64,000 bases of DNA from Nemertoderma westbladi (Eukaryota; Animalia; Xenacoelomorpha): the NCBI GenBank assembly GCA_032718475.1, contig JAUCBJ010006805.1, forward strand, positions 100,161 to 164,160, read 5' to 3'. Positions within the stretch are counted from its first letter, which is position 1, and every line of letters starts with the position of its first letter. A program made the position numbers and the translations under genes. A model generated the notes under the pieces. That model made no database searches, was not told where the DNA came from, and worked only from the letters and a program-made list of their open reading frames with translations. Shown here in pieces: positions 9,866-52,360 of the stretch.

Positions 9866-10318
9866 TAATATCGCCTATATTCAAATCAAATTCAAATACA
9901 TTTTACACATGTTAAAACCATGTAGGTCTATATAGCTAAGCATTATTGATAACCTGGACAATCGTGTCAGATTTACGTGTGCTGTCTTACCTCTAACTTA
10001 ATAAATAATTAATATATGGCGATATTTCAGACCCTCATTGCAAGCTCTAATAATAATATATAATATAATAGCGATAATAATATAAACAGATATAGACTTG
10101 CCACAATGCGTTTCCCCAAAAGGGAAACACAATCACCAGACTTGAGCCCTTACATAAATAATTAGTCATAATAATAAATATATAATAAACAAATAAATAA
10201 TTTGCTTGTTGTATTGTGTTGCCACACCCTCCCGGTACTGTATACTAGTGAAATATAATAGATGATCAATTACCGTAATAGACTGAGCGAAACATTGAGC
10301 AATTCAACGCAATCGTGG

Positions 10319-11534
10319 TGTAAAAGCTTTTGTGGGATAACTGATTCGTTTGCCTTGTTGGCCAGTTCCCCCCCAGTCGCTAAGAATACTCTCAAAGTGA
10401 TCTACAGCTAAAAATAGTGCAAGTTACCAGCTTATTGGCTGATTTGCTGTACGCAGGCATCTGGGCTCTGTTTAATCGGCCAACAAGCCTAGGGAGGTTG
10501 CGTCATAGCCTTGTTTTTGTATCTCCCAATAGAATTTTGAGTTAGCCTTGATTTGACCTATCACAGAGTACTGAACTGAAAATTTCCTATCTCACTGCTC
10601 TTTCTCTGTGTTGAACGGGAGCTTCGTGGAATAAGAGTGGTTGGTATACTCGTATAGAGCAGTAGTCACGAGTTTTTCAAAGCCACGAAAGAACGGCTTT
10701 TTAGTGTTTTGTGCTTTCTGCTTTTTAGCTCAACACTAGTAGGTTTAATTACAAGGACATATATCCTTTAACTGACGAAACAAACACTCTGCAATTTCGT
10801 AATCACTGCATACTGCAGTACTGCATACACTGCATACTGTGTAACACTGTGCATACTTTTATATTGTTATACTGCTATTTACTGTCAGTTCTTCATAATA
10901 TGGTTGATGAATTATTATATTTGGAATAACGAGAAATAACCCCGAAACCCAATATTCTTGATATACCGAAGGTAAGAGAGAAAGGTTACAGATAAACGAT
11001 TGTGACTTATGTTAAAGTGGTTTGAAGTGAATCTAATGTTATTTGATAGACCCTACATGAGTCAGTCTGTGTTCCTTTTATATGTGACTAAAATCAGTGA
11101 AGATCGGCAGATTAGTGTGCAGTATTGTGCAGCATTGTGTATGAGTGAGTCTGTTAAAGAAGCATTCCTAAAGAATGCGCCATATATGTGAATTATAATT
11201 AAGCCATATCGTTGTGAGTAGTTTAAGTCATAACTCTGTTTATGTAGATAAAGCGCCACGTCCTAAAGGAACTGTTAATATTCCCGAAGGTAAATAATAT
11301 TGTCAGAGATTATATAATACTGTCAGTCGAATAATACATTAGGCTTACATAGCAACAAAATTAAACCGTCGAACCCAATCTCCCGGGAATATCCAGCGGG
11401 TGAATGGTCGCGCACGGATTGGTTTCGACTAGTGTAGTGAATCAAATACTTGTCATAGGCTAAAAAGCGATTTAATATCTAGAAGACATCTTAATTTGGC
11501 GGGTTAAACTGCCAAAGGTCTGAAAGCGCGAACA
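10319..11534 (+). repeat. 5' LTR of element A
   Basis: tgtaaaagcttt...gcgcgaaca; direct repeat of 21459-22674. Confidence 0.95.
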
Positions 11535-11548
11535 TTAAAGGATATATG
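11535..11548 (+). promoter_or_regulatory. Non-tRNA primer-binding site of A, complementary to LTR 10758-10771
   Basis: ttaaaggatatatg is the exact reverse complement of catatatcctttaa; there is no TGG start. Confidence 0.7.
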
Positions 11549-13772
11549 GCTTCTTTGTTGCAGTAAGCAATAAAGTTGAAAGTACCGGTCAACCGGTAAA
11601 CCTGAACCGGTACATCTGTAGGTCAGTAGTCGGTAGGCCCAACCGCTAGAACCGGTACTTCTGTATTCCGTGGGCCTAGCTGTCCTAACCGGTACTTCCG
11701 TATAAGTACACTAGTATTATTCGATTTGATTGTTGTATACCGGTAGGTCTTAGTACTTAATCAGGGAACGGCCGCCCTGATTTTTTATTGAGATTTTACT
11801 TATTTCTGTCAAGTTTTATTTATTTGTAGGCCAGTATTGAACAGAAGGCGTGTAAGCCTGATCAGATTGTACAGACGATTTGTAGGCTGAGCTGTTGTCT
11901 GATTGCTGTTAAGTCCGAACGAATTGCAGTGTGTGTAGATCACCTGTCCGATTAAGTACGATTAGGCAGTAGGGGCAGCGAACGCTGTAAGGTAAACCCC
12001 CAACTAAAGAATAAGTCGCACTACTGGGTTAGAGCGCATACTCCCTAATCATTTCGGAGTCTGCATGTCCTGTAGTTTATTTAGGCTTGAGAGTAGTCTG
12101 CCATCGTTTAGTCTGTACTTTGTTTGTGTAAGTCTGTACGGGTAGCGTATAATTTTATTTAGATAATTTGTAGGCTGGATAGCTGTCTGGCTGTTATTAG
12201 GTCTGAGCGGATTGCCGCGTGTGTAGATCATCTGTCCGATTAAGTACGGTTAGGCAGTAGGGGCAGCGAACGCTGTAAGGTAAACCCCCAACTAAAGAAT
12301 AAGTCGCACTACTGGGTTAGAGCGCATACTCCCTAATCATTTCGGAGTCTGCATATACCGTAGTTTGTTTAGGCTTGATAGTAGTCTGTCAGTGTTCGGT
12401 CTGTATTTTGTTTGAGTAGTTTGTACGCGTAGCGTAATATTTATTATTCAGAGTTTATGCGATTATCAGCAACATTCATTCCCCAAGTTTGTTCCTACAG
12501 TAATTGTGTTTGTTATACATACCGTTATAGTTAAATTAACCCCGGTACTACACGGGCTGCTCGGCGTAGGTAAAGACTGGTGATTTTGTGCATCGGTCAC
12601 TCCAGCAGATGCCGTGGTTCCTTTAGCTGTTCAAGTATATTTAACTACTGATTATCTGTTGTACAAGTACTCGTACCTAATTTAGGGTTTAGTGTACAGT
12701 ACTTTCCGAAGTAATTATTGTAGGCATTATATTTGTGTTGTAAAGTGGTTGATAGGCACATTCGATTAGCTCTATTAACTTCTAGGTAGGAACACTCCGT
12801 GATACATAACGTAGAACCTATAGCGATACGGCTATAGGTCGTCAGGCGGTGGTATTTTCCTATCTAGACAACGCAGTGTATTTACTACTACTTATTATTT
12901 CAAATACCGTAGTACCCTGTCCGTTGTAATAACCGGTTATCTAACCCTTTGTTAGGCTGGTTTGTAGACTTCTTGTAAAATTACCCTAAAAAATTCGTAT
13001 TTTGTGTTTTTTGTAAATTTTTGTGTTTATTTAGAGATTGTAATCTCAACCCGAATCGTACGTAATTTGTAGTATTAAGTAACTTAGGTAAATTAGAATT
13101 ATTTGTTTTAGTGTCCTATAAGTAACACTTCACTGAAAGCGCACCGCTTTGTGTAGTGATTACTCCCCAGAAATAATAACATTTATTTCAAACATTGACA
13201 AAACCCATTAAACGGGTATATATATAGGCTATTATAAATCAAATCTAACGATTTATAAATAGTAGGCCTACCATACAACCATTAGGTCTCCATATCAGTT
13301 GGTCTACTGCTCAAATAGCGGTAATAAAGTAAGTAAAGTAACCAAGTAACCCTAAAAATTCAGAAATTCAGTTATTTAAAATAATTGATATACCGGTATT
13401 TATAATAGGCTTATTATATTTATTTCTATAAATTTTAGGTTGAAATCATACCGGTATTCTGTAATTAATTCTAGTCTGTAATTATACTTATATATATACA
13501 CTATAAGTGTAAACTGCATACCGGTATCCACGATAGGCCTATTATATATTTATATATATTTGTGCTAAAATTATATACCGGTTTCTGTGAAAAACCTAGT
13601 CTGTCATAATACTTATATATACCATAAGCATACCGGTATTCTAATATTATATATATCACGCTACACTGGGTAGCAGTATCGGTAATTAATTACTAGGCTA
13701 GCAGTTAATACTGAATTACTAGACTTGCTTAGACTGTAATATAGCAGTAGGCATTCAACTGTACAACCAAAC

Positions 13773-16700
13773 ATGTCTGACTCACAACAAACATTGTCAG
13801 ATAGTCTCTTAGAGGGTGTTAGAATGAGTATTCGACTTAGACAGCGTCTTAAAAGGATCTGTGACCAAGATCAAAGTATGGAACATCCCAGACCAAAGTC
13901 TAAGTCCCCTCCTACTGTGCGAAAGATCATCCCTCAAGTAGTAGTATCAGACCCTAGGCTAGTCCAACATCGTAGGTCTATCATAGGCACTCGAGCTCAG
14001 GTCAAGCGGGACCAAGAAGCAGCGGAACAGCAACAACCCGCGAGTCAAGAACTTATTCCTCAGCGGCCCAGCAGCTCCAGTAGTGAGGATACTGTAGAGC
14101 TGACGCCCAAACGCGGAGCGAAGATGGCGGATAAGGTTTATGATGAGTGGCCAACCTATGAAGAATCAACCGACGCCACTTCTTCTCAAGAAGAAAGCGA
14201 AGTGACAGCAGAGAAACCGCATAAGAGGGATGCTATTGACATCTATCTGTCAGACTATCAACGCTTTGTAGGAGATGAAGAGTTGAGGAGAAGGCTGGAG
14301 GGGCTTAGCCCTAATAGTGAAGGAACCAAGCTTGTGCTGGACGCAATCGATGCGGAAATGTTAGCTGCGAATCAGGCTAAATTTGATGAACAACTCCGCA
14401 TCACTAGAGTCCAAGAAGAGCAAGTAAAGAAAAAACTTATAGAAGACAGAAAGAAAATAGCAGCGGCCTTTGCAGCTGCAGTGGCAGAGGCAGAAAGAAA
14501 GGCGGCAGCGGCCAAGGCAAAAGCGGCAGAGGCAGCGGCAGCGGCCGAAGCTGAAAGAAAGGTGGCCGAGGCTGAAAGAAAGGCCGCAGAGGCAGTGGCC
14601 GAAGCGGAACGGAGGGCATCTGAAGAAAAAGTCAAACTAGAGTTGGATAATCTTCAAGAGAAGCACGATTACTTAAATAAACAGATAACGGCTAGTGATA
14701 TGCAGCTGATAAGTCGGACTACTTCCAAGAGACAGGGATTTACATCCTCTGATGAAGGAGATACAACAGATACTGAAGGCAAAAGAAATAGATCTCGTCT
14801 AGGCAGACGTAGAAGAACATCCCACCGTCAGAAATTGCCTGATTTGCCTCCAGCTGTTAGAAGACAACTAAATAACACCAACTTAGGTAGTACAGAACCC
14901 ACAGACCAAATAATTGAAATAGAAAGACTCCCTACTATAGTAGATGAGCCTGAAATAATTAGGCCTGTTCTTGAAATCACCCCTACGGTGATAGACACAC
15001 CTGTGCTCCCTGAAGCTACCTATAAATTCCCTCTGCATAGCACTAAGCTACCTGTGCCCCGTAGAACTGCCCAGGAGACAGTTCAGGTCCTGGACCCCGA
15101 GCGAAATATTCCAAATTTGTCGCCCGTTGTCCCTCGTCTGCCCGCTACGACGTTGGCGGATCCCGTTTCGGCGGTTGATTGGGTAGACGAGAGACGGCGG
15201 GGGATGGATATCCTGCTCGGGCAGATGCAGGAGACTGTCCAGCAGTTCAAGGGCACAGTAATGGAAAGTAGACTAGAGTTGCAAGAAGTGCAGCAAAGTA
15301 TCGCGTTAGAACGCGATAAATTAGTAAATACTCAAAGAGGTATACCACCACCCTCTGTAACAATGTGTCAACCTGTTAGGTCTGAAGTATCTCATGCGCA
15401 AGGTGTGGAGCCTACACGCATATATACTGCTAGCGAAGTAGAAACTCCTATAGTGAACCCTATTAAGGGTAATTATAGACCTGTTGATAATGATATTCCA
15501 CATAGAACTGATCATAATCCGAGAAATTTATATACCGATAACTCGATATTAAATAACACGATGGCCCAAGAAAGTTTTACGCGTCAAATGGCTAGAACCG
15601 AAGCCCGGCAAGCGGTAAAGGTGGGAGAGATCGTCAAGTTCAATGGAGATGAGATGAAATGGTTACCTTTTAATGAATATTATAAAGATAACATACAGAA
15701 CTCTGTACTATCTAACGGAGAGAAACTTAGATTCCTCATCGAATGTTTGGAAGGACCTCCCAAGTTAATGGCGTTAAAATTTATTGGACATCCAGATGGA
15801 TTAAGACAAGTTTGGGATACACTAAACATCAGGTATGGTAATAGGACTAACATAGCTAGGTATTTATATGCGAAATTAATGGCGCCCCGAAAGTTTCTTA
15901 GCAGCGGGATTATAGAGTTTTCCGATGAGATTCAGGAGATCTGTAGACAACTAGATTGGTTAGGTAAGTCTCATGAATACCAGAATTCTATGGTTGTAGG
16001 AGCCTTAGCATCTACTTTGCCCAAGGGTGGAGTAGGTACACGCTGGGACAAGAAAGTGTTATATATGATGGAACAACAACAACGAGACCCTACCATGGCT
16101 GATCTCATGTCATTCTTAGATGGAGAAGTGAAATTACAGCTCCTAAGACAGTCCAGAGAGAAGACACTGGAAAACAAGGTAAGTGAGAAACCCGTTTCTA
16201 GGAGAAGGGTAACACCAGTATGTTATACCTACGACGGTGAAAGCCAAACTTCTCAAGGAGAGGACAGCGGGAAAGACACTGACAGATCTTATTATGTCAA
16301 TAAATTGCCTAAAGATCAGGTAAGTAAATCCGAGTCTCGACCCAATGACAGAAGGGAACCGGTACAAAAAACCCTTCCTACGTCTCCTAAAAGAATTCAG
16401 GTGAGAAAGCCCGAGGAAAGAACAAGTGTGCACCACATAGCACAGGTTAAAGTAAGTAACATCAAGCCGAAATGTGTGCTGTGCGACGGGCCCCACCGTT
16501 TAAATGCGTGTGATAAATTCCTGAGGAAATCACTCGAGGATAGACGTGAAGTCATGTGGAATAAGCGGTTGTGTTATAATTGCCTCAGACGAGGACACCA
16601 ACGGCGAACCTGTAACTCCGACGCAAGGTGTGCAAAGTGCGGCGCAAAACATCATATCTTGTTGCACACGGAATTCGAACGAAACAGCCCGAGTCAGGTA

Positions 16701-18212
16701 AGTGAGTCCGAACTACATGTCCAATTCAGTGATGTGAACGACACTGATCAATCTGAGATGGAAGGATTCTATACGGACGAGTTCTCCGACCAAAACGAAT
16801 CCTGTTACCTAATAAACACCACCGCAGTGTATCGAGCACTCGTACATGAGAAAGACACAGACAGCGACCTTACCTTAACTACTTCCGATCAACAACCATC
16901 TTGGAAAGCGCCAACTTCCAATATAGGAATCCGAGAATTTCCTGTAGTTCAGTTACGGGTCCACGGACCTCAGAAGAGCTATATAGTGAACGCCCTCCTG
17001 GACTCCGGCAGCACAGGAACATTCATCGATAAAGAACTAGCCGAAGTCATCTTTGCTGGACAACCCAAGTTCCGAACCAAGCTAAACATGTCAGGGATCA
17101 TGCAGGTTTGGAATTATACTGTAGCTGCCGACTATTATATAGGTGAGTTGTCCACCCCCCAGGACGAACTAGGAGAACATAGCATCAGGTCAGTGAAAAT
17201 GGTGGCTATAAAGAACTTCGCTACTACTCAAGCAGACCTTTATAATTGGGACGAGGATGAGAGCATCCAACATCTTAACATACCTCGATTCCAGACTGAT
17301 TATCCTGGAGTGCAAATACTCATCGGCCAAAACGCGCATGAGGCGCTGGAGACATTAGAGAAACGGCCTGCTCAACCGCAGCCACTACAGACCTATGCGG
17401 TAAGAACTAGAGTAGGTTGGTACCTTACTGGACCTTCCCGTAGAATGCTCAGGGAAAGACTGCTTCAAGATCGCGTCTGCCAGGTGAGTGAATGGGAAGA
17501 TGATACTAGTGAGGGAGACGACCCAACTGAGGGAACACCACACTCCTCAGATAATGACAATCTTAGCTCCAATGTAGATCAATGGAGATATTGCCCCAAG
17601 AAGTTTAATCCAACGGACATCGCTTCCAGAGGAGCAACTCCTCAAGAACTGACAGATACTATAGACAGGTTAGGTGAACCCGACTTCCTGAGTAAGGAGA
17701 ATGAATGGCCTCCCCATCTTACTCCGACTGAGATTAGACCAGCCAAGGGAGCGGAGAAAGTCGAACCTGAAACCCGGACGGGTGGATCGGAGTTATTTGA
17801 ACCCGGGATAGATCTGTCGGTATTACATGTTGCCAGGGACGACGCCGTGGATCTGGGCCTCCCCTCCGCGAGTGGATCCTTCATGAAGATCAGAGAGAGC
17901 GATTGGAGCTCTGGAACATCAGACGTCTCGCAGGGACTCTCACCCCTCCTGCAGAGAGCGACGGACCACTATAGCTCCTGGAATCGGCTTTGTGACGCCG
18001 TCATATACTTTGAGCGATGTTTCTATCGTCACTATTCCAGGACGAAGAGGAAACCTGGAATTGTATTCAGGATGCAGCGACTCAATCACCCAGTCGGTCG
18101 TTTGTGTTTATCGGAAGGGAATGGAGGACTCTCCGGAAACTGTGGAAGGCAAGATTCTCTTCCCACGACCACCTCCCTAATCCTTCAAACATCTAGGGAC
18201 TCCATAACGTAA
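13773..18212 (+). CDS. gag: BEL/Pao Gag-protease polyprotein (1479 aa) with RT, most of RNase H and integrase deleted
   Basis: KFNGDEMKWLPF..KLRFLIECLEG BEL capsid-like region; three knuckles (CVLCDGPHRLNAC, CYNCLRRGHQRRTC, CAKCGAKHHILLH); protease ALLDSGS..LIGQ; then directly the RNase H tail QWRYCPKKFNPTDIASRG and YSSWNRL. No YxDD and no integrase. Confidence 0.9.
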   Translation: MSDSQQTLSDSLLEGVRMSIRLRQRLKRICDQDQSMEHPRPKSKSPPTVRKIIPQVVVSDPRLVQHRRSIIGTRAQVKRDQEAAEQQQPASQELIPQRPSSSSSEDTVELTPKRGAKMADKVYDEWPTYEESTDATSSQEESEVTAEKPHKRDAIDIYLSDYQRFVGDEELRRRLEGLSPNSEGTKLVLDAIDAEMLAANQAKFDEQLRITRVQEEQVKKKLIEDRKKIAAAFAAAVAEAERKAAAAKAKAAEAAAAAEAERKVAEAERKAAEAVAEAERRASEEKVKLELDNLQEKHDYLNKQITASDMQLISRTTSKRQGFTSSDEGDTTDTEGKRNRSRLGRRRRTSHRQKLPDLPPAVRRQLNNTNLGSTEPTDQIIEIERLPTIVDEPEIIRPVLEITPTVIDTPVLPEATYKFPLHSTKLPVPRRTAQETVQVLDPERNIPNLSPVVPRLPATTLADPVSAVDWVDERRRGMDILLGQMQETVQQFKGTVMESRLELQEVQQSIALERDKLVNTQRGIPPPSVTMCQPVRSEVSHAQGVEPTRIYTASEVETPIVNPIKGNYRPVDNDIPHRTDHNPRNLYTDNSILNNTMAQESFTRQMARTEARQAVKVGEIVKFNGDEMKWLPFNEYYKDNIQNSVLSNGEKLRFLIECLEGPPKLMALKFIGHPDGLRQVWDTLNIRYGNRTNIARYLYAKLMAPRKFLSSGIIEFSDEIQEICRQLDWLGKSHEYQNSMVVGALASTLPKGGVGTRWDKKVLYMMEQQQRDPTMADLMSFLDGEVKLQLLRQSREKTLENKVSEKPVSRRRVTPVCYTYDGESQTSQGEDSGKDTDRSYYVNKLPKDQVSKSESRPNDRREPVQKTLPTSPKRIQVRKPEERTSVHHIAQVKVSNIKPKCVLCDGPHRLNACDKFLRKSLEDRREVMWNKRLCYNCLRRGHQRRTCNSDARCAKCGAKHHILLHTEFERNSPSQVSESELHVQFSDVNDTDQSEMEGFYTDEFSDQNESCYLINTTAVYRALVHEKDTDSDLTLTTSDQQPSWKAPTSNIGIREFPVVQLRVHGPQKSYIVNALLDSGSTGTFIDKELAEVIFAGQPKFRTKLNMSGIMQVWNYTVAADYYIGELSTPQDELGEHSIRSVKMVAIKNFATTQADLYNWDEDESIQHLNIPRFQTDYPGVQILIGQNAHEALETLEKRPAQPQPLQTYAVRTRVGWYLTGPSRRMLRERLLQDRVCQVSEWEDDTSEGDDPTEGTPHSSDNDNLSSNVDQWRYCPKKFNPTDIASRGATPQELTDTIDRLGEPDFLSKENEWPPHLTPTEIRPAKGAEKVEPETRTGGSELFEPGIDLSVLHVARDDAVDLGLPSASGSFMKIRESDWSSGTSDVSQGLSPLLQRATDHYSSWNRLCDAVIYFERCFYRHYSRTKRKPGIVFRMQRLNHPVGRLCLSEGNGGLSGNCGRQDSLPTTTSLILQTSRDSIT

Positions 18213-20565: not shown

Positions 20566-21458
20566 ACGGAAAGACATAAACATCCACGGAAACGTTGTGT
20601 TAAACACAGTGGTGTTCGTTATATTTACTGGAGTTTCGAGCGAAACTTGTTTGACGTATCACCTATGCTCACTCGGCTCTAACGATCCTAGAGTAAACCT
20701 ATGATCAGAGTCCCGTAATACTCGGTCAAACCTCCTCATTCCTTAGTTGGACCTCAGACCTGCGATCCTGGTGGTGTCGCGGATCCTCGCGGACGGTATT
20801 CACTGTTCAAGATCTAGTGCTACCCTAACAATTAATCGGTAACACTCCGACAGTGATTTCTAGCTAGCCGCCCATCTTACCTAGCCGGATTATGACGCAG
20901 ACACCTAATATCACTATCCAACCGTATGGTCGTCCCGTTTAACGCAATACAACCCTTCATCAAGGTGAAGGAGAGCGTTGTACGACACGAGTTAAACGCT
21001 ATTCTATAAAGATCAACAAAGAAACCTGCGTTTGTTCAGATAAACGTAAGTTATAACATTAAGTCCAATCGATAAACGAATTGGCCTTATCTCAGTTCGA
21101 TTGGGAAACCTCGAATCTCAAAGAAGATATCAAGCTTAGAAAACCCTATTCTCTGCGAGAGTTTTGGATGAACGTATCCCATGACAAGCGGAGGAAAATC
21201 AGCTCGAGGAGAAGCATATCGAAATGGACGAGACACCGACCGTAAACCCAAACCTTTTAATGCAATCATATTGCACCCTTCACCCAGGAGTTATGGCCCT
21301 CCTAGTAAAGTGGCTTCCCCCAAAGAGAAAAGGACTCTTGCTAGCCTTAAGAAACTGCGTAAACGCCGTCCGCGCAAGAAAGACTAACTGTATTTTTATA
21401 TTTTAGAAACTGTGATTTTGTATATTTTATAGACTTAAATCCCATTTTCTGGGAGCGG

Positions 21459-22674
21459 TGTAAAAGCTTTTGTGGGATAACTGATTCGTTTGCCTTGTTG
21501 GCCAGTTCCCCCCCAGTCGCTAAGAATACTCTCAAAGTGATCTACAGCTAAAAATAGTGCAAGTTACCAGCTTATTGGCTGATTTGCTGTACGCAGGCAT
21601 CTGGGCTCTGTTTAATCGGCCAACAAGCCTAGGGAGGTTGCGTCATAGCCTTGTTTTTGTATCTCCCAATAGAATTTTGAGTTAGCCTTGATTTGACCTA
21701 TCACAGAGTACTGAACTGAAAATTTCCTATCTCACTGCTCTTTCTCTGTGTTGAACGGGAGCTTCGTGGAATAAGAGTGGTTGGTATACTCGTATAGAGC
21801 AGTAGTCACGAGTTTTTCAAAGCCACGAAAGAACGGCTTTTTAGTGTTTTGTGCTTTCTGCTTTTTAGCTCAACACTAGTAGGTTTAATTACAAGGACAT
21901 ATATCCTTTAACTGACGAAACAAACACTCTGCAATTTCGTAATCACTGCATACTGCAGTACTGCATACACTGCATACTGTGTAACACTGTGCATACTTTT
22001 ATATTGTTATACTGCTATTTACTGTCAGTTCTTCATAATATGGTTGATGAATTATTATATTTGGAATAACGAGAAATAACCCCGAAACCCAATATTCTTG
22101 ATATACCGAAGGTAAGAGAGAAAGGTTACAGATAAACGATTGTGACTTATGTTAAAGTGGTTTGAAGTGAATCTAATGTTATTTGATAGACCCTACATGA
22201 GTCAGTCTGTGTTCCTTTTATATGTGACTAAAATCAGTGAAGATCGGCAGATTAGTGTGCAGTATTGTGCAGCATTGTGTATGAGTGAGTCTGTTAAAGA
22301 AGCATTCCTAAAGAATGCGCCATATATGTGAATTATAATTAAGCCATATCGTTGTGAGTAGTTTAAGTCATAACTCTGTTTATGTAGATAAAGCGCCACG
22401 TCCTAAAGGAACTGTTAATATTCCCGAAGGTAAATAATATTGTCAGAGATTATATAATACTGTCAGTCGAATAATACATTAGGCTTACATAGCAACAAAA
22501 TTAAACCGTCGAACCCAATCTCCCGGGAATATCCAGCGGGTGAATGGTCGCGCACGGATTGGTTTCGACTAGTGTAGTGAATCAAATACTTGTCATAGGC
22601 TAAAAAGCGATTTAATATCTAGAAGACATCTTAATTTGGCGGGTTAAACTGCCAAAGGTCTGAAAGCGCGAACA
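21459..22674 (+). repeat. 3' LTR of element A
   Basis: Direct repeat of 10319-11534, followed by TSD CGTGG. Confidence 0.95.
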
Positions 22675-22700
22675 CGTGGGAAAAGGGGGAAATAGAGTGA

Positions 22701-22843: not shown

Positions 22844-24408
22844 CGCAATTACCATTTAGTGTTTCAGACTGGGCATTTTACTCGCATTGTTACATGGTTT
22901 ATTAAATAATCCGAAAGAGTCAAAATATATAAAAATGGAGATTATGAACGTCTTTTTTGTCAAATGCACTAACAATTTGTGCCTCATCACTAAGCCTCGT
23001 GCTGCGCGAAGACTCAACGAATGTGTTATCTACAATTAATACTAGGCTGTAGGCCTACAGTGTATTTTCCGACCATGTTTTAACTACTGCATGGCCTGTG
23101 GAGCATTTGCAGAAACATCATATACACCGTTTCATATGCATTACAAAAATATATATTACATAATGAGGCATTGCTATATAATTATTAATCAGTGTTTGCG
23201 CTTTTAAGACCTTTGACAGTTTAACCTGCCAAATTAGGATGTCTTTTAGATGATAGATAGTCTTTAGCCTATGACGAGTATTTGATACACTACATTAGCC
23301 GAAGCCAGTCTATGCGCAATCATTCACCCGCTGGATATACCCGGGAGACTGAATTCGGAAGCTTAATGATTGATGGTGTAAGCCTACTGTATTATTCGAC
23401 TGATCGTAATATATAATCTCTGACAAATATTATTCACTTTCGGGAAATATTAACCGTTCCTTTAGGACGTGGCGCTCTAAATATGTAAACAGAGTTATGA
23501 CTTAAACCAGACGCAATGAGATGGCTATAGATTCACGTATATGGCGCATTCTTTAGGAGATGCTTTGTTATCGGTCACAATCATACACAATGCTGCACAA
23601 TGCCGCACACCAATCTGCCGACCTTCACTAATTTTAGTCACATACAAAGAGAATAACAGACAATACATGTAGGGCCTATAAAATAGCATTAGATTCACTT
23701 CACACCACTTAACATAAGTCGCAATCGTTTATATGTAACCGGTCTCTCTAACCTTTAGTATATCAAGAAGATTGGGGTGTCTGACTATTGATCAGTATTC
23801 CAAATATAATCTTCCATCAACAAATATAATGAATAACCGACAGCAAAAGCAGTAATGTTAAGTAAGATATGCATGATATGTTTAGATAACAGATATACGT
23901 TCTATAATTAAGCCTACTAATGTTAAGCTAAAGACTGAAACACGGAGGTGCCAAAAGCCGGTGTTCTTAGGCTCTGGGCATAAACATAACACTGAATTCC
24001 TGAGTTTCTGTATCCAACCTCCAACACAGAGACAAAAAACGCTCTGATTGGTCGACCGTACAAAGAGAGAACAAAGAACAAAGAAATGTTCGACGTGGCA
24101 ATATCAGCTGTTAGCCGTCGTCATGGTAGTGACACTGTTTTCAAGAGTATCCAGCTTATTGCGTCACGAAATTGCGGATTATGTCCGCTAAAGTACACCT
24201 ACAGAAGAAATTACTTTTATGTCCTCTAAAACACCAGTACAGTAAGGACACGGCCTTTTTATGCCCAGTAAACCAACTACAGAGTACTTTACGGGGAAAA
24301 TAACCAGCTAATTACGCAAAAGCTTTTACACCACTCCCAGAAAATGGGATTTAAGTCTATAAAATATAACAAATCACAGTTTCTAAAATATAAAGATACT
24401 CTAAACAG

Positions 24409-27573: not shown

Positions 27574-28620
27574 TTACGTTATGGAGTCCCTAGATATTTG
27601 TTGGATTAGGGAGGTGGTCGTGGGAAGAGTATCTTGCCTTCCATAGTTTCCGGACAGTTTTCGGTCTCTTTCCGGTAAACATAAACGACCAGCTGGGCGA
27701 TTGAGTGGTTGTGTTACTTTCTCCGCTCCCTTGGCCTGTCTAATCTTCACCGGGGTAAGCTGAGGAGGCCATTCATCTTCTTTACTTAGGAAGTCGGGTC
27801 CACCTAACCGGTTTGGAGTATCTGTAAGTTCTTGAGGAGTTGCTCCTCTGGAAGCGATGTCGGCTAGATTGATCGTCTCGGGGCAATGTCTCCATTGATC
27901 TTCGTTGGAGTTGATGTCATCATTATCTGAGGAGTATGGTATTCCCTCAGTTGGGTCGTCAACTTCACTGCTCTCCACTTCCCGTTCACTTAATTGATAT
28001 ACCTGTTCTTTTGGTAATCTTTCCATAAGAGTTCTACGAGAAGGGCCAGTAAAGTACCAACCTACTCTAGTTCTTCCCGCATAAACTTGTAGAGGTTGCG
28101 GTTGAGCAGGCCGTTTCTCCAATGTCTCGAGCGCTTCATGCGCATTTTGACCGATGAGTATTTGGACTCCAGGGTAATCGGTGTTGAATCTAGGTATTTC
28201 AAACTGCTGGGTGAAATCGTCCTCATCCCAGTTATAAGGTTCCACTTGGGTGGTAGCGAAGTTCTTTATTGCCACCATTTTCACTGACCTTATGCTATGT
28301 TCTCCTAGTTCGTCCTGGGGGGTGGACAACGCACCTACATAATAATCCGCTGTTACTGTAGATTTCCAAACCTGCATAATTCCTGACATGTTTAGCTTAG
28401 TTCGGAACTTGGGTTGTCCAGCAAATATGTCTTCGGCTAGCTCTTTGTCGATGAATGTTCCTGTACTACCGGAGTCAAGGAGGGCGTTCACTACATAACT
28501 CCTTTTTGGTCCGTGGACCCTTATCTGTACCACAGGAAATTCTCTAATCCCTACATTGGAAGTTGGCGCTTTCCAAGATGGTTGTCGATCAGAAGTAGTT
28601 AGAGTGAGGTCCGCTTACGT
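27574..28620 (-). CDS. Protease + RNase H remnant ORF of element B
   Basis: ALLDSGSTGTFI..LIGQ..QWRHCPETINLADIASRG; same RT/integrase deletion as A and same C-terminus (SRDSIT). Confidence 0.8.
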
Positions 28621-29907
28621 CCTTCTGGGCTCCTCCCCGAGGCGCACCCACGAGGCGGACGCTTTTCCACCACCCTTGGGGCCAGTCCGACTGATGTTTT
28701 TATCAGACCGGGCCGGAGGGTAGCCCGATGCTTCCCGGGTTCACTTTTCAATCCCCCGATCACACCGGCACAGCTCGTCAGTGTAGCCAGATGGTCGGCT
28801 ACTGTCAACTTACTGTGGCCTGACTGTACATTGAGCCAACTCAGAGAGTCAACCGGCGGGTGGACCAGTCGATAGCGATCGAGCATCAAGGTCGCCCTTG
28901 AGCCAAACCGACGGTCTTGTCCCAAGTGGGCTTGCGCTACCCAACATGGAATATTGACACGTTTTCACCCGCCTCGCCGGCAGTATTGAGGGGAAGTCGG
29001 TTCCGCAAACAATACTGACTAGCTCGAAAGCTAGGAACAAGTAACCACTTACCAGTCACTGTACACGTGTACTCAATAGATGTTCACAATATCAAGTACA
29101 CTACGGTAAACACAAAATCTGACACATACCATGCACACACAGAGGACATAATCAGGAAAGACAAAATCGGGGACAAAATCAGAGGGGACAAAATTGTATC
29201 GACTGTTAAAAGAGTCGAGAGTACCTTATTTTGCCGTCAGGGCAAAACAACTTTGTGTGCACAAAGTATGCTGGGGCGCAGTAAAGATATGGTCCTACTA
29301 ATACCAGCGGCGTCTGGACCAACCGGCAAGGGTTCCCATACTCACTCGCAGTGGCCATACATACACTCACGTATACCACGTACCCACAGCAACAGAAAGC
29401 TCAAGCAAACTGCCACTGATCGTCCACACACACCACAGAATCCAGAGTATCATTCACTCGGACCACACTACAACACCAACCCCTCCTTGCAGCCGATATT
29501 CCGGGTGCCACCTCCATTCCAATAGTAGTACCAACAGAATCATCAGAACCTGCCCATTCCGATGCAACACCTCCATTCCAATAGTGCTACCCTGGGAAAA
29601 GACACGTTTTGGCAACCGATCGGAGACAGTAAAGAGTCTGGTCAACTCATACATACCAAACATAGACCTACCACATAGACCACATAAACCACAGATCACA
29701 CTAAGCCACCACCCCTACTGTGTACAGGACTGGCAGTACGGCAACAGGCCGACTAGACGGTACCACGGCACCATGTTGATTCATGGTTCGTAAGACACGA
29801 GGGCCTTCAGTAACTCCCTTGCACTATAGATACGATTTAACGTGCCCCCAGACCCTCACGAGTCCGCCGCCGCCTGTTGAAAGCACCCCTATAGAGACCT
29901 CACCTCC

Positions 29908-32900
29908 TTAGGCACTTTCTGTATCTTTTTCATAAGTGAGTGCTCGATACACTGCGGTATTTATCATGTAACAGGATTCGTTTTCGTCGGAGAACTCGTC
30001 CGTATAGAATCCTTCCATCTCAGATTGATCAGTGTCGTTCACATCACTGAATTGGACATGTAGTTCGGAATCACTCACCTGACTCGGACTATTTCGCTCG
30101 AATTCAGTGTGCAACAAGATATGATGTTTCGCACCGCACTTTGCACACCTTGCGTCGGAGTAACAGGTTCGCCGTTGGTGTCCTCGTCTGAGGCAATTAT
30201 AACACAACCGCTTATCCCACATGACTTCACGTCTATCCTTTAGTGATTTCCTCAGGAATTCATCACACGCATTTAAACGGTGGGGCCCGTCGCACAGCAC
30301 ACATTTGGGCTTGATGTTACTTACTTTAACATGTGCTGTGTGGTGCACGCTCGTTCTTTCCTCGGGCTTTCTCACCTGAATTCTCTTAGGAGACGTAGGA
30401 GGAGTTTTTCTTACCTGTTCTCTCCTGTCATTGGTTCGAGACTTGAATTTACTTACGTCCTTAGTCGCTTTGTTGTCATAGTAAGATCTTTCAGTGTCTT
30501 TCCCGCTGTCTTCCTCTTGAGAAGCCTGGCTTTCGCCGTCGTCTGTATAACACACTGGTATTACCCTTCTCCTAGAGACGGGTTTCTCACTTACCTTGTT
30601 TTCTGGTGTCTTCTCTCTGGACTGCTTTATGAGCTGTAATTTCACTTCGCCATCCAAGAATGACATGAGATCAGCCATGGTAGGGTCTCGTTGTTGTTGT
30701 TCCATCATATATAACACTGTCTTGTCCCAGCGTGTACCTACTCCACCCTTTGGCAGAGTTGATGCTAAGGCTCCTACAACCATAGAATTCTGGTATTCAT
30801 GAGACTTACCTAACCAATCTAGCTGTCTACAGATCTCCTGAATTTCGTCGGAAAACTCTATAATCCCGCTGCTAAGAAACTTTCGGGGCGCCATTAATTT
30901 TGCATACAAATACCTAGCTATGTTAGTCCTATTACCATACCTGATGTTTATTGTATCCCAAACTTGTCTTAATCCATCTGGATGTCCAATAAACTTTAAC
31001 GCCATTAACTTGGGAGATCCTTCCAAGCACTCGATGAGGAATCTAAGCTTTTCTCCGTTAGATAACACGGAGTTCTGTATGTTATCTTTGTAATATTCAT
31101 TAAAAGGTAACCATTTCATCTCATCTCCATTGAACTTGACGATCTCTCCCATCTTTACCGCTTGACGGGCTTCGGTTCTAGCCATTTGACGCGTAAAACT
31201 TTCTTGGGCCATCGTATTATTTAATATCGAGTTATCGGTATATAAATTTCTCGGATTATGATCAGGTCTATATGGAATATCATTATCAACAGGTTTATAA
31301 TTACCCTGAATAGGGTTTACTATAGGAGTTTCTACTTCACTAGCAGTATAGATGCGTGTAGGCTCCACACCTTGCGCATGAGATACTTCAGACCTAACGG
31401 GTTGACACATTGTTACAGGGGGTGGTGGTATACCCTTTTGTAAATTGACTAATTTATCGCGTTCTAACGCGATACTTTGCTGCACCTTTTGCAACTCTAA
31501 CCTACTTTCCCTGACTGTTCCCTTGAGCTGCTGAACAGTCTCTTCCATTTCCCGGACCTGCTGAGAGGAGCACAAACAGTTTTCCCTCAGCTGCTCGAGC
31601 AGGAGACCCATCTCCCGTCGTCCCTCAGCTACCCACTCGACCGCCGAAGCGGGAGTCACCAACGTAGTAGCGGGCAAGCGAGAGACAACGGGCGATAAAT
31701 TCTTAATATCTCGCTCGGCGTCCAGGATGGGTTCGGACTCGGGAACAGTCCTACTGGGCACAGGTAGTTTCGTGCTGTGCAAAGGGAATTTAGAGGTAGG
31801 TTCTGGGAGTACAGGTGTCTCTATCACCGCAGGGGTGGCTTTGAGAACAGGCCTAATTATTTCAGGCTCATCTACTATAGTAGGGAGTCTTTCTACTGTA
31901 ATAATTTGGTCTGTGGGTTCTGTACTACCTAAGTTGGTGTTATTTAGTTGCCTTCTAACAGCTGGGGGCAAATCAGGCAATTTCTGACGGTGGGACATTC
32001 TTTTACGTCTGCTTAGGCGAGATCGATTTCCTCCGCCTTCAGTGTCGGTGGTATCGCCTTCCTCAGATGATGTATAACCTTGTCTTTTGGGAGTAGATCG
32101 ATTCATCATCTGCATATTACTAGCTGTTAACTGTTTATTAAAGTTGTCTTGTCTCTCTTGAAGATTTTCCAACTCTAGTTGGGTTGTCTCTTCAGATGCC
32201 CTCCGTTCTGCTTCTGCCACTGCTATTTTTCTTTCCGCTTCTGCCGCTGCCACTGCCGCTGCTGCTGTCTTTCTATCTTCTATACGTTTTTTCTTTACTT
32301 GTTCTTCTTGAACCTTAGCGATGCGGATACTTTCATCAAATTTAGCTTGGTTCGCAGCTATCCTATCCACATCAATTGCGTCCAACACACGCTGGGCTCC
32401 TTCACTATTAGGGCTAAGTCCATCTAACCTTCTCCTCAACTCTTCATCTCCTAAAAAACGCTGATAGTCTGACAGATAGATGTCAATGGCATCCCTCTTA
32501 TGCGGTTTCTCGTCCGTCGCTTCACTTTCCACTTGGGAAAAAGTAGCGTCTGTTGATTCTCCATGGGTTGAGCGCTCCTCCAGCTGAGCTTTCCACTGAG
32601 CTGTTCCTTGAACCTGGAGACTCACCCGCTGAAACCAAGTCTTTACGGCAACTTGCAACGACGTGTCTTGTCTTCTTTTAGAAGCCTCTTCAAAGGCCGA
32701 TAAGATTAGCCTGATTCGCAGAATTCTTTCTCTAACTTGATAAAGCAGTTGTCCCTGCTCTTGAGGTCCTTGTGGTTGTTGAAACAGTTGTTCTTTTAGT
32801 CGCTCCATAGAGCTGAAGAATCCCTGTGCGTATCCGGCTGCGGACCTCTTCCACACAGCTGGATCGATGGTTTCCTTGGTTACTCCCATCCGGTGTATGT

Positions 32901-33444
32901 CTTCCCAGGCAGCTTCTGATAAATCAAACGGGAGTCCGGGTCCGGGGAAGTTCCATTGCGACTCGACAATAGACTTCAGTTCTTCCCTTGTGTATCCCGC
33001 ATAACTATCTTTAGTTGATCGCTGACTTCTCGCCCAATCGATCTGGTGTTCTTCCACCGCGATCAATATCCTAGTGAGTACGGCTGCAGGCAGGATGAGA
33101 AGGGGATCCGAATAAACCGCATCCGTCATCTTTGCTCCGCGCTCGGGTGTCAGCTCTACAGTATCCTCACTACTGGAGCTGTCGGGCCGCTGAGAAATAA
33201 GTTCTTGGCTCGCGGGTTGTTGCTGTTCCGCTGCTTCTTGGTCCCGCTTGACCTGAGCTCGAGTGCCTATGATAGACCTACGATGTTGGACCAGCCTAGG
33301 TTCTGTTATTACTACTGGAGGGATGACCTTCCTCACAGTGGGAGGTGAACTGAACTTAGGTGTAGACGGTTCTACACCCTTATCTGAGTCGCAGATAGTT
33401 ACATCTAATAAACTGTCTGACAGGTTCTGCTTAGTATCAGACAT
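29908..33444 (-). CDS. gag: BEL/Pao Gag of element B (1178 aa)
   Basis: Highly similar to A Gag, including the three Cys/His knuckles; ends in TAA, ~1.3 kb before the protease ORF. Confidence 0.9.
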   Translation of the reverse strand: MSDTKQNLSDSLLDVTICDSDKGVEPSTPKFSSPPTVRKVIPPVVITEPRLVQHRRSIIGTRAQVKRDQEAAEQQQPASQELISQRPDSSSSEDTVELTPERGAKMTDAVYSDPLLILPAAVLTRILIAVEEHQIDWARSQRSTKDSYAGYTREELKSIVESQWNFPGPGLPFDLSEAAWEDIHRMGVTKETIDPAVWKRSAAGYAQGFFSSMERLKEQLFQQPQGPQEQGQLLYQVRERILRIRLILSAFEEASKRRQDTSLQVAVKTWFQRVSLQVQGTAQWKAQLEERSTHGESTDATFSQVESEATDEKPHKRDAIDIYLSDYQRFLGDEELRRRLDGLSPNSEGAQRVLDAIDVDRIAANQAKFDESIRIAKVQEEQVKKKRIEDRKTAAAAVAAAEAERKIAVAEAERRASEETTQLELENLQERQDNFNKQLTASNMQMMNRSTPKRQGYTSSEEGDTTDTEGGGNRSRLSRRKRMSHRQKLPDLPPAVRRQLNNTNLGSTEPTDQIITVERLPTIVDEPEIIRPVLKATPAVIETPVLPEPTSKFPLHSTKLPVPSRTVPESEPILDAERDIKNLSPVVSRLPATTLVTPASAVEWVAEGRREMGLLLEQLRENCLCSSQQVREMEETVQQLKGTVRESRLELQKVQQSIALERDKLVNLQKGIPPPPVTMCQPVRSEVSHAQGVEPTRIYTASEVETPIVNPIQGNYKPVDNDIPYRPDHNPRNLYTDNSILNNTMAQESFTRQMARTEARQAVKMGEIVKFNGDEMKWLPFNEYYKDNIQNSVLSNGEKLRFLIECLEGSPKLMALKFIGHPDGLRQVWDTINIRYGNRTNIARYLYAKLMAPRKFLSSGIIEFSDEIQEICRQLDWLGKSHEYQNSMVVGALASTLPKGGVGTRWDKTVLYMMEQQQRDPTMADLMSFLDGEVKLQLIKQSREKTPENKVSEKPVSRRRVIPVCYTDDGESQASQEEDSGKDTERSYYDNKATKDVSKFKSRTNDRREQVRKTPPTSPKRIQVRKPEERTSVHHTAHVKVSNIKPKCVLCDGPHRLNACDEFLRKSLKDRREVMWDKRLCYNCLRRGHQRRTCYSDARCAKCGAKHHILLHTEFERNSPSQVSDSELHVQFSDVNDTDQSEMEGFYTDEFSDENESCYMINTAVYRALTYEKDTESA

Positions 33445-35799
33445 GTTTGTTTACACAGTTGAATGCCTACTGCTATATTACAGTCTAAGCAAGTCTAGTA
33501 ATTCAGCATTAACTGCTAGCCTAGTAATTAATTACCGATACTGCTACTCAGTGTAGCGTGATATATATATAATATTAGAATACCGGTATGCTTATAGTAT
33601 ATATAAGTATTATTAGTAACTAGAATTAATTACAGAATACCGGTATGATTTCAGCCTAAATTTATATATATAATAGGCCTATCTTGAATACCGGTATACA
33701 GCTTACACTTATAATGTGTATATATAAGTATAATTACAGACTAGAATTAATTACAGAATACCGGTATAATTTCAGCCTATATTTATGAAAATAAAGATAA
33801 TAAGCCTATTGTAAATACCGGTATATCAATTATTTTAGAATAATTGAATTTCTGAATTTTAAGGGTTACTTGGTTACTTTAACTTACTTTATTACCGTTA
33901 TTTAAGCAGTAGTCCAACTGATATTGAGACCTAATTGTTGTATGGCAGGCCTACTATTTATAAATCGTTTGAGTTGATTTATAATATATATATACCCGTT
34001 TAATGGGTTTTGTCAATGTTTGAAATAAATGTTATTATTTCTGGGGGAGTCACTACACATAAGCTGTGCGCTCTCAGTGGAGTGCTACTTGTTAGACACT
34101 AAAACAAATAATTCTAATTTACCTAAGTTACTTAATACTACAAATTACGTACAATTCGGGTTGAGATTACAATCTCTAAATAAACACAAAAAATTTAATT
34201 ACAAATACGCAAATACGAATTTTTAGGGTAATTTTACAAGAAGTCTACTAACCAGCCTAACAAAGGGTTAGAATATCTGGTTATTACAACAGACAGGTTA
34301 CTACGGTATTTGAAAATAATAAGTAGTAGTAAATATACTGCGTTGTCCAGATAGGAAAATACCACCGTCTGACGACCTATAACCGTATCGCTATAGGTAC
34401 TACGTTATGTATCATGGAGTGTTCCTACCTAGAGATTAATTACCGCGGTCTACCAGAACCAACGTGCCTATTAACCACTTTACAACACAAATATACTGCC
34501 TACACATTAATCACCTTCGGAAAGTACAGTACACTAAACCCTAAATTAGGTACAAGTACTTGTACAACAAATAATTAGTAGTTAAAAATACTTGAACAGC
34601 TAAAAGAACCACGGTATCTGCCGGAGTGACCAAAGCACAAAATCTCCAGTCTTTACCTACGCCGAGCAGCCCTGATGTAGTACCGGGGTTAGTTTAACTA
34701 TAACGGTATGTATAACAAACACAATTACTGTAGGAATAAACTTGGGGAATGAATGTTGCGAATAATCGCATAAACTCTGAATAATAAATATTACGCTACG
34801 CGTACAAACTACTCAAACAAAATGCAGACCAAATACTGACAGACTACTATCAAGCCTAAACAAACTGTGACGGGATCTACGGATCCCGGTTTATCCGTTG
34901 GGTTTTCTATCCACGCGTCCCCGCCGTTGTGTGAAAGGTAAAATAGTTCTGATGTTGGGTAATATGTATAAAGGTATAATAGTCTGATAGTTGATATAGT
35001 ATAGTATGACACAACAGGTAATATATAATGGCGGTAGCGGACGGTGACAGAAGTCCCCGTTCCACCCTACTGATCTGACTGAGTAAACTGAATGAATGAT
35101 TACAGGTTACTGGTTATATTGCACGGTGGCCTTATTGCTACTCAATCGATGCCTTTCCCCCCTCTGATTGGTTGATATCCCTGTTGGCACCCTTTGGAGT
35201 GTTTCCCTTCACTCCCTGTGTTCTCTCTCGGTTAGGGGTTTGGCCCCTGACCCCTATTGTGTGTGTCTCCTTTGGGGCCTATTGTCCCCGTTTACTGGGC
35301 TGACACGAGGTTGATTGGTAATCAACCTCGTGCTCCCAATATTGCTTTATGGCTCATTCTATGGGTTTGTGTTAGCGGAATTGGATAAGCTAACACTCCC
35401 CCCCATGCTATCTTCCCGGTGAGAAGATAGCATCCAACTCAAGTGCGCTACAATTCTGCTGGATCCCGATCTATTATCGGGTGTGGGGTGGGTCTATTTT
35501 TTCGGAGTCGGCTTTCCAGGCCGCTCCCTATGGGTATGATGTCACTACCCTCTGGCGTCTCGTGTCGGGCCGATCGTGCGCTTCTCTCACACAATTTTTG
35601 TTTCCCCAACACTCTCACCATTCTACTCCAACTCTCGCATACCCCCGGACCTCCTCGTCCCACAATCTTTCTCTCACTTCTCCTCCCCCACACTTGAATT
35701 GCGCCCACGCTCTCTTCGCACTCCGCACTATTACCTCTCCACTCTCTTGTCACTCCCTAAGGCTTTAATCTCTAATGCTACCCCTGTGCTATCATACTA

Positions 35800-41412: not shown

Positions 41413-41421
41413 TTCTGTCAC
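41413..41421 (-). promoter_or_regulatory. Non-tRNA PBS of C, complementary to LTR 41600-41608
   Basis: Minus gtgacagaa directly after the 5' LTR pairs with ttctgtcac in the LTR; imperfect pairing continues for ~40 nt. Confidence 0.6.
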
Positions 41422-42714
41422 TGTGACGGGATCTACGGATCCCGGTTTATCCGTTGGGTTTTCTATCCACGCGTCCCCGCCGTTGTGTGAAAGGTAAAAT
41501 AGTTCTGATGTTGGGTAATATGTATAAAGGTATAATAGTCTGATAGTTGATATAGTATAGTATGACACAACAGGTAATATATAATGGCGGTAGCGGACGG
41601 TGACAGAAGTCCCCGTTCCACCCTACTGATCTGACTGAGTAAACTGAATGAATGATTACAGGTTACTGGTTATATTGCACGGTGGCCTTATTGCTACTCA
41701 ATCGATGCCTTTCCTCCCTCTGATTGGTTGATATCCCTGTTGGCACCCTTTGGAGTGTTTCCCTTCACTCCCTGTGTTCTCTCTCGGTTAGGGGTTTGGC
41801 CCCTGACCCCTATTGTGTGTGTCTCCTTTGGGGCCTATTGTCCCCGTTTACTGGGCTGACACGAGGTTGATTGGTAATCAACCTCGTGCTCCCAATATTG
41901 CTTTATGGCTCATTCTATGGGTTTGTGTTAGCGGAATTGGATAAGCTAACACAAACTACGGTATATGCAGACTCCGAAATGATTAGTTAGTATGCGTTCT
42001 AACCTAGTAGTACGACTTATTCTTTCACAGGGGGTTTACCTCACAGCACTTGAAGCCCCTACGTTCCCAACTAGCACTTTATCGGACAGATGCTCTACAC
42101 ACACTGAAATTTCCTCAAACCCAACAACAGCCAGACAACTATCCAGCCTACAAATTATCTAAATAAAATTATACGCTACCCGTACAGACTACACAAACAA
42201 AGTACAGACCAAACGATGGCAGACTACTATCAAGCCCAAATACACTACAGTATATGCAGACTCCGAAATGATTAGTTAGTATGCGTTCTAACCCAGTAGT
42301 ACGACTTTTTCACAGGGGGTTTACCTCACAGCACTTGAAGCCCCTACTTTCCTAACTAGCACTTTATCGGACAGATGCTCTACACACACTGCAATCCGTT
42401 CAGACTTAACAACAGTTAGACAACAGTCAAGCCTACAAATTATCTGTACAATCTGAGCAGGCTTACACGCCTTCTGCTCAATACTGGCCTACAAATAAAT
42501 AAAACTGACAGAAATAAGTAAGCTCCAAAAGAAACAAGGGGTGTACAGTCCCTAATCTCTTAAACAGCCTACCGGTATACAATACCACAATCGAATAATA
42601 CTGCTGTACCTGTACTGCTGTAGGTACCGGTCCGGATGATCAGGCAGTCAGGCCTACTGGTTACCGGTCGACCGGTACTTTAGACTAGATTGCTTACACC
42701 GCAATCTAGAAGCA

Positions 42715-42725
42715 ATATCTGTTAT
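42715..42725 (-). promoter_or_regulatory. Non-tRNA PBS of B, complementary to LTR 43419-43429
   Basis: Minus ataacagatat directly after the 5' LTR pairs with atatctgttat at the LTR position homologous to that of A. Confidence 0.7.
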
Positions 42726-43948
42726 TGTTTGCGCTTTTAAGACCTTTGACAGTTTAACCTGCCAAATTAGGATGTCTTTTAGATGATAGATAGTCTTTAG
42801 CCTATGACGAGTATTTGATACACTACATTAGCCGAAGCCAGTCTATGCGCAATCATTCACCCGCTGGATATACCCGGGAGACTGAATTCGGAAGCTTAAT
42901 GATTGATGGTGTAAGCCTACTGTATTATTCGACTGATCGTAATATATAATCTCTGCCAAATATTATTCACTTTCGGGAAATATTAACAGTTCCTTTAGGA
43001 CGTGGCGCTCTAAATATGTAAACAGAGTTATGTCTTAAACCAGACGCAATGAGATGGCTATAGATTCACGTATATGGCGCATTCTTTAGGATATGCTTTG
43101 TTATCGGTCACAATCATACACAATGCTGCACAATGCTGCACACCAATCTGCCGACCTTCACTAATTTTAGTCACATACAAAGAGAATAACAGACAATACA
43201 TGTAGGGCCTATAAAATAGCATTAGATTCACTTCACACCACTTAACATAAGTCGCAATCGTTTATATGTAACCGGTCTCTCTAACCTTTAGTATATCAAG
43301 AAGATTGGGGTGTCTGACTATTGATCAGTATTCCAAATATAATCTTCCATCAACAAATATAATGAATAACCGACAGCAAAAGCAGTAATGTTAAGTAAGA
43401 TATGCATGATATGTTTAGATAACAGATATACGTTCTATAATTAAGCCTACTAATGTTAAGCTAAAGACTGAAACACGGAGGTGCCAAAAGCCGGTGTTCT
43501 TAGGCTCTGGGCAAAAACATAACACTGAATTCCTGAGTTTCTGTATCCAACCTCCAACACAGAGACAAAAAACGCTCTGATTGGTCGACCGTACAAAGAG
43601 AGAACAAAGAACAAAGAAATGTTCGACGTGGCAATATCAGCTGTTAGCCGTCGTCATGGTAGCGACACTGTTTTCAAGAGTATCCAGCTTATTGCGTCAC
43701 GAAATTGCGGATTATGTCCGCTAAAGTACACCTACAGAAGAAATTACTTTTATGTCCTCTAAAACACCAGTACAGTAAGGACACGGCCTTTTTATGCCCA
43801 GTAAACCAACTACAGAGTACTTTACGGGGAAAATAACCAGCTAATTACGCAAAAGCTTTTACAATCAGTTATAAAATATAATAATGTAGGCCTAGATACT
43901 GTGCCTACATACCTGTTACATACATACCTACATGCCTGTTATTTGCAG

Positions 43949-49250: not shown

Positions 49251-49651
49251 ATGCAGGACAATAATGTGTTGCATCATTGATTGATTTTATTGTCATCATT
49301 TCAATTTAGCGCACATAACAAAATCAATTTAACAATCAACAGGATAATAATGACCATTCATGAACTCAATTAACACGTTATTATTTCAAAAGAACTTTAA
49401 CCTAAAGTACGTTAGCACAATAAATTTACTTTCATTACATTGTACACAATTATGATAATATCAATATCAACATACGTACGGCCGTGTGAAGCATGGTCTT
49501 AGTAATTCGAGTGTCCATTAAAATAAACATTTTAAATAAATAATAAGTAGTAAATAAATAAATGATAGTGCCATAGAATTTAACTAGTAAAATGCAAAAA
49601 TAAAGTAAATCTGAAATTAGGTAATTGTATCCTGTCGGGTGTCGCTGTTAC

Positions 49652-51026: not shown

Positions 51027-51037
51027 GTCGCTGTTAC

Positions 51038-51989: not shown

Positions 51990-52360
51990 GTCGCTGTTAC
52001 AAAATATTGTTATAAAGCAAATATAGCACATGTGAAGGTACGAAATTCAGTGCCATTTAATACATTAAATTTAGTCTTTTTAAAATTATACTCATTCCAG
52101 AATAACAGCATAATTCCCACAACACCTTCAATTTATTCCTGATCTTTATCTGGTTGTAGAATAGAATACTGAAGTGATTTCAACCAATCATAACAAGGCA
52201 AATGTGTAAAGGCTCTCACAAAGAAATCATCAATAATAACGACAAATAAGTGAATTGTTGTGGGGCGAGTGACGCGGTGAATTAAATATATAATGTAAAT
52301 AGGACAATATGATAATGCTCTCTATAGCGAAAAATATCAACCGGCCCTATTGGGGCTCGA

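Follow-up and report, generated by a model that had tools for sequence, protein, structure and literature searches.

Three LTR retrotransposons, here termed A, B and C, lie in the analysed window (64,000 nt of a Nemertoderma westbladi contig, to which the positions below refer), and in each of them the DNA behind the 5′ LTR is the complement of a segment inside that same LTR. The feature is non-random, and chance is ruled out for A. Judged from the sequence, A, B and C probably prime minus-strand DNA with their own LTR RNA by a Tf1-like fold-back in cis, and not with a tRNA; that the primer would be element-derived at all, cis fold-back and supply in trans taken together, is considered highly likely. 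What would be new here, on our best reading, is a mechanism of the Tf1 kind, already known, in BEL/Pao elements, with a splice-assembled form in relatives.

Self-comparison of the window and inspection of the flanks delimited A as an LTR retrotransposon at 10319-22674 (plus strand), with 1216-bp LTRs (5′, 10319..11534; 3′, 21459..22674) that are identical to each other, a 5-bp target-site duplication (10314..10318, second copy at 22675-22679) and a purine tract (21451..21458) ahead of the 3′ LTR. This LTR start corrects the preliminary description: the predicted primer segment is located at LTR positions 440-453 and not at the LTR start. B (43863-23193, minus strand) has LTRs of 1138 bp with 7 differences between the 5′ copy (42726..43863) and the 3′ copy (23193..24330). 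C (41951-34866, minus strand) is nested within B, and its 530-bp LTRs (5′, 41422..41951; 3′, 34866..35395) differ at 1 site. All three elements have TG..CA ends, 5-bp target duplications and a purine tract, features of Belpaoviridae (BEL/Pao, Semotivirus), and show the layout used to define that family, LTRs of 0.2-1.2 kb flanking gag/pol together with a target duplication.

The ORF of A (13740..18212, plus strand) encodes a BEL/Pao Gag (DUF1759, E 1e-12), zinc knuckles, a protease and a short C-terminal remnant of RNase H of about 50 aa. The same parts are encoded by B, whose gag-protease region (27574..33450, minus strand; DUF1759, E 1e-11) is split by insertion; relative to A, insertions are found at 28615-29907 and 32570-33112. 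All 6 protein homologs were BEL/Pao polyproteins, five with Pao peptidase A17 and DUF5641 and the sixth with A17 only. Of the Belpaoviridae proteins, A and B thus carry DUF1759 Gag, zinc knuckles and protease, and C zinc knuckles only; since the zinc-knuckle match (E 4e-8) is the only one between C and the BEL/Pao homologs, the BEL/Pao assignment of C is weaker than those of A and B. RT and integrase are absent from A, B and C. As both are missing and RNase H is left as a remnant only, these are non-autonomous derivatives rather than complete BEL/Pao members, a point that the preliminary description had overlooked. The family of A is highly repeated in contigs. On sequence grounds A, B and C are classed as young, non-autonomous BEL/Pao derivatives, C less certainly than the others. 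An extra ORF common to A (19834-20565, plus strand) and B (25110-25658, minus strand) is located between gag-protease and the 3′ LTR, and its A copy gave no Pfam match.

The 14 nt that abut the LTR of A (11535..11548, plus strand) are the exact complement of 10758..10771 (plus strand) within that LTR, and the first of them pairs with 10771, the 3′ end of the LTR segment, which is the register needed for priming. None of 5000 dinucleotide shuffles of the LTR reached 14 bp (maximum 12), and among 9902 positions of A's interior the PBS has the longest LTR complement. The helix of B joins 42725-42715 with 43429-43419 (PBS, 42715..42725; predicted 11-nt primer segment, 43419..43429; both minus strand) in the same register, and its 11 bp were matched in 9 of 5000 shuffles; because 8 of about 18,400 interior positions, the PBS included, reach a complement of 11-12 bp, the B helix is not extreme taken alone. 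C, also in this register, has a helix of 9 bp between its PBS (41413..41421, minus strand) and the predicted primer segment (41600..41608, minus strand), again with 9/5000 shuffles. The pairing energy of each PBS with its own LTR was -16 to -22 kcal/mol, versus -4 to -11 kcal/mol for pairings across A, B and C.

Alignment of A with B indicated that their primer/PBS sites are homologous, and PBS positions 1, 5 and 6 differ together with their LTR partners, the 11 bp containing neither a one-sided change nor a broken pair (naive chance of the three double-sided changes, 2e-4). Conservation was 32 of 45 columns just upstream of the primer segment and 19 of 99, mostly gaps, just downstream. The block kept in B just upstream of the segment spans 10722..10757 (plus strand) in A and begins with an Inr-like motif (10725-10730), while 10772..10870 (plus strand), directly behind the segment, is indel-variable; joints running from 10770-10776 to 10806-10867 were seen in family contigs. 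A TGG occurs nowhere in the first 20 nt behind the LTRs of B and C, and A has one only at +13, which B lacks. An 18-nt PBS starting with TGG, the complement of a tRNA 3′ end, was found in none of A-C, the 64-kb window contains no tRNA genes, and 10300-11800 gave no Rfam match at E ≤ 1. The lack of a TGG-type tRNA site, the perfect 14-nt complement in A, the three compensatory substitutions between A and B and the priming register had all been put forward in the preliminary description, and each of them held.

In the mechanism that we propose, transcription of A would start upstream of 10758, and the first 45 nt or so of the RNA would have the 11-14 nt annealing to the PBS at their 3′ end. Cleavage would follow between 10771 and the conserved C at 10772; the enzyme would probably be, as in Tf1, the RNase H belonging to an RT that an autonomous helper provides in trans. 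From the new 3′ end, RT would synthesise DNA across U5-R as far as the cut site. Strand transfer would be made possible by R homology downstream of 10771, and plus-strand strong-stop synthesis would copy the primer, rewriting the PBS from the LTR. Retroviral plus-strand synthesis copies the tRNA primer; the Tf1 primer, going by the title of one paper, is reportedly not removed. If the PBS is rewritten from the LTR in each cycle, the covariation between A and B would be automatic, without selection on each change. An internal tRNA-like primer, which would be a different arrangement, has reportedly been described for the nematode element Cer7.

A second short helix beyond the first, also part of the preliminary description, fared differently from the PBS helix. 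Its letters are present in A and B, and no support for it was obtained: a predicted local hairpin behind the PBS overlaps it and prevails, at 11553..11575 (plus strand) in A and, kept with different letters, at 42685..42709 (minus strand) in B. Ensemble pair probabilities of the second helix were at most 0.23 in A and 0.09 in B, versus at least 0.9 for the hairpin, and it ranked no better than swapped partners (0.42-0.47). The majority family variant 11557 G>A makes the A hairpin perfect, and would break the second helix of A unless its partner base had changed as well; no partner change was among the variants listed. Hairpin competition, the swapped-partner ranks and 11557 G>A led us to reject the second helix for A-C. 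Over 22 families, native second-helix extensions had a mean of -6.0 kcal/mol versus -4.7 kcal/mol for swapped ones (combined p 0.11). Of the self-priming BEL/Pao lineage that had been suggested, priming by element RNA is kept as the best-supported reading, one that the comparison with relatives (below) strengthens considerably, and the second helix is not.

The distance from the Inr-like motif to the primer end is 45 nt in A, 44 nt in B and 46 nt in C, a hint of a primer longer than the paired segment; our best guess for the transcription start of A is near 10727, with 43462 and 41645 as the predicted starts of B and C. Only C has a TATA-like motif (41675) 30 nt further upstream of the Inr-like motif (41647), and a fixed start-site motif 44-46 nt upstream of the primer was missing from 19 relatives. 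The Inr-like motif (10728 in A, 43461 in B, 41644 in C) is also readable as a splice acceptor, and no kept splice donor was found upstream of it in A, B or C; as an alternative, it might be a trans-splice site. In whole-leader folds of A, pair probabilities of the helix were mostly 0.97-1.0 for RNAs that begin at the segment or close to it; moving the start to 39 nt upstream of the primer end lowered the value to 0.53, and at 59 nt it was 0. The helices of B and C reached at most 0.6.

Within the family of A, a T>G variant at 11535 that had been predicted in advance was not found among the variants listed. The PBS variant 11539 A>C made up 30-34% of depth in two runs, its LTR partner being absent among the variants listed, and 2-nt deletions were also seen in the PBS; the PBS and LTR arms could not be phased from contigs for an assessment of within-family covariation. 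Short GT..AG intron-like segments are present in the LTRs downstream of the primer segment (A, 10972-11460; B, 43285-42800), with GT..AG donors kept between the A and B LTRs at A positions 10972, 11139, 11290 and 11400; these segments may possibly be spliced out of gag mRNA only. No canonical intron was found that improves the helix in A, B or C. X5, which is only guessed to be RNA and is silent on expression or splicing, contained no joints at the GT-AG segments of the A LTR.

Alignment of the six homologs retrieved 78 BEL/Pao loci (cited below by L numbers) from metagenomes; viral contigs gave no relatives. An RT-RNase H tree of 72 of the 78 loci (the 6 short matches being counted with the non-TGG group) separated two clades, TGG and non-TGG. 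A TGG-type site was located 1-6 nt behind the CA in 9 of 15 testable loci of the TGG clade, and in no locus with a defined LTR end in the non-TGG clade. Few loci of the non-TGG clade were accounted for by contiguous complementarity. Among elements with defined LTR ends, the PBS was a 10-15-nt complement of a GTAAG..YAG junction of the LTR in 6 of 8 non-TGG elements versus 0 of 6 TGG elements, and each of the six was equalled by 0-1 of 200 per-element shuffles. LTR introns whose predicted junction is the exact PBS complement include L004 908-984, L019 6570-6645, L020 2401-2549, L029 3768-3931, L037 8908-9030 and L010 7009-7270.

A strict blind scan for splice-junction complements (GT-AG, 10-15 nt), with filters that were fixed after earlier looks including a loose scan, covered 63 loci, the other 15 of the 78 having less than 400 nt upstream. 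Such complements were found in 16 of 48 non-TGG loci (13 families, some related) versus 0 of 15 loci of the TGG clade (Fisher p 0.007), and in 0 reversed, complemented and same-sense controls. The PBS lay 0-4 nt behind the LTR end, and this end agreed with the independently defined one in 8 of 8 matches that had one. The loose scan had given 16/62 and 6/16 loci with controls of 5-7 per clade, and because of this high background the stricter scan was substituted. Contiguous complements were found in 7 of 48 non-TGG loci, 2 of 15 TGG loci and 4 of 63 reversed controls, and 5 of the 7 non-TGG matches end in A-Y followed by C. Neither the spliced nor the contiguous form was seen in 27 of 48 non-TGG loci of this first set, many of them with incomplete LTRs. 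Comparing 18 nt with the complete LTR by free duplex energy gave poor separation (z -1.2 for B and z -2.6 for one TGG element), and anchored exact pairing was therefore used.

The base behind the helix was C in A, B and C and in 13 of 15 relatives (16/18; p 1e-6 against an expectation of one third, with rows that are partly dependent and one, L061, from the looser scan), a hint that this C may mark the predicted cut site. Among 22 families there were 20 different PBS 9-mers, each matched by its own LTR. Where the PBS finds its complement solely in the joined sequence of a splice junction, the partner is hard to picture as anything but RNA. A-C would represent the intron-free form, and in many relatives the paired segment would come into being only after removal of an LTR intron, a feature that had also escaped the preliminary description. 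We lean slightly towards a large, widespread BEL/Pao branch that would have given up tRNA priming for an LTR-made primer, which in most families would be assembled by the spliceosome and cut at A-Y|C, and in which A-C would be intron-free and draw their enzymes in trans.

A held-out set of 37 BEL/Pao loci (L079-L115) was taken from inside bacterial and archaeal genome assemblies, where they are most likely contamination by eukaryotic hosts; 14 of the 37 were excluded as unplaced or too short. The strict splice scan was negative for all 8 non-TGG and all 15 TGG loci, and contiguous complements turned up in 0 of 8 and 4 of 15, respectively, in a sample where most non-TGG loci lack LTRs and 1 of the 8 non-TGG loci had a true LTR pair. 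In L086, a near-copy of L004, the junction is visible by eye and the LTR end is mutated, and a looser look added one weak match, L081. The 14 best matches of the A protease all belonged to the non-TGG clade (51 bits versus 28.5 bits for the best TGG-clade locus), the Gag and knuckle matches of A were mixed between clades, and in a quick Gag-protease tree A, which lacks RT, formed a long unplaced branch. Placement of A in the non-TGG clade is loosely indicated by these comparisons.

Part of the evidence could also be accommodated by an element-derived primer acting in trans, in which a separate short or spliced LTR RNA, from a co-packaged genome, a 3′ or solo LTR or a helper, would anneal to the full-length template. 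The partner segment of A is 760 nt away from the PBS and long folds lose the helix with starts further upstream; the LTRs of relatives keep the intron that their predicted primer lacks, as would be expected if the primer were spliced and the template were not; and the high copy number of the family also fits. Against this, each PBS fits its own LTR and cross-pairing is poor, which suits fold-back in cis best while still being compatible with trans pairing within a family, and a cis model could inherit the intron from the 3′ LTR copy. We regard supply in trans as unlikely, while giving it more weight than either of the readings that follow.

The segment might instead be a TATA-like promoter element outside the RNA 5′ end, its complementarity being a DNA-level relic or chance. 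A TATA-like word is indeed present inside the primer segment of A and B, 12 nt from the segment end, and were it to serve as a TATA box, the RNA 5′ end would not include the segment. The word departs from the TATA consensus and is missing from C and from the primers of relatives, indels vary the DNA that follows it, A is too extreme for chance, and the splice-junction complements of relatives need RNA; this explanation is very improbable. It is improbable, to a lesser degree, that the helix is structural, serving to mask the PBS or as a switch for translation or packaging, with a host RNA such as a tRNA half as the true primer. Priming by tRNA halves is known in copia lineages, according to the portion of PMC6317226 consulted. 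A structural role sits poorly with PBS sequences that vary from almost every family to the next and are invariably found behind the LTR, with a helix end 0-4 nt past the LTR boundary, where TGG sites lie in the sister clade, and with the conserved C behind the helix, which fits a cut site. Self-priming by fold-back in cis remains the preferred reading.

Close parallels to the cis fold-back predicted here are found outside BEL/Pao. Excerpts of the literature describe, for Tf1 of S. pombe, annealing of the first 11 bases and an RNase H cut that give the primer (PMC7175516), a proposal that Tj1 of S. japonicus self-primes like Tf1 (PMC4600332), and plant Tcn1 and copia TAR lineages as predicted self-primers (PMC6317226). 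As far as these excerpts go, the Tf1/Tf2, Tj1, Tf1/sushi and Tcn1 groups are like A-C in having no tRNA site and a PBS complementary to about 11 nt derived from the LTR, and a cut at the duplex end would give the primer in the Tf1 group as predicted for A-C. The Tf1 group belongs to Ty3/gypsy, whereas the proteins of A-C are BEL/Pao-type and not chromovirus-type; A-C also encode no RT, and many of their relatives would need splicing to form the primer, unlike the Tf1 group. In the Ty1/copia elements TAR, Houba and Osr-1 of plants, a 5′ LTR segment is complementary over at least 10 nt to a site 0-5 nt behind the LTR (PMC6317226, in part); A and B have such a segment and C, with 9 nt, is one short. 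These are copia elements of plants, and the excerpt describes no splice junction for them, unlike the relatives of A-C.

For Belpaoviridae, whose replication is poorly understood, the reference description has a host tRNA prime synthesis at a PBS of 18 nt, and A-C lack this PBS, the RT and the integrase of that family (PMC8742986). A word search of three BEL/Pao surveys (PMC3118150, PMC554778, PMC6238403) returned no mention of PBS or tRNA, and the parts consulted of PMC3601003, PMC5443660, PMC8220671, PMC12451622 and PMC6934838 contained nothing on BEL/Pao priming. No report of self-priming in BEL/Pao was found in the literature covered, which for the most part did not extend to subscription papers and Repbase reports. 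If the proposed mechanism is true, LTR elements have evolved self-priming in a third superfamily, and animals have it beyond the Tf1/sushi group; it would also explain why many elements, forming a large branch, have no recognisable PBS and would be missed by PBS-dependent annotation. Through the splice-junction form, reverse transcription of the relatives would be coupled to splicing by the host, with splicing as a gate. The window offers a young, high-copy family with an exact predicted RNA 3′ end (10771).

Elsewhere in the window, positions 1-2220 are occupied by a tandem array of about 30 copies of a 63-bp unit, and non-LTR-type RT fragments together with a 961-aa RT frame are located at 49649-56787 and 60856-63741.
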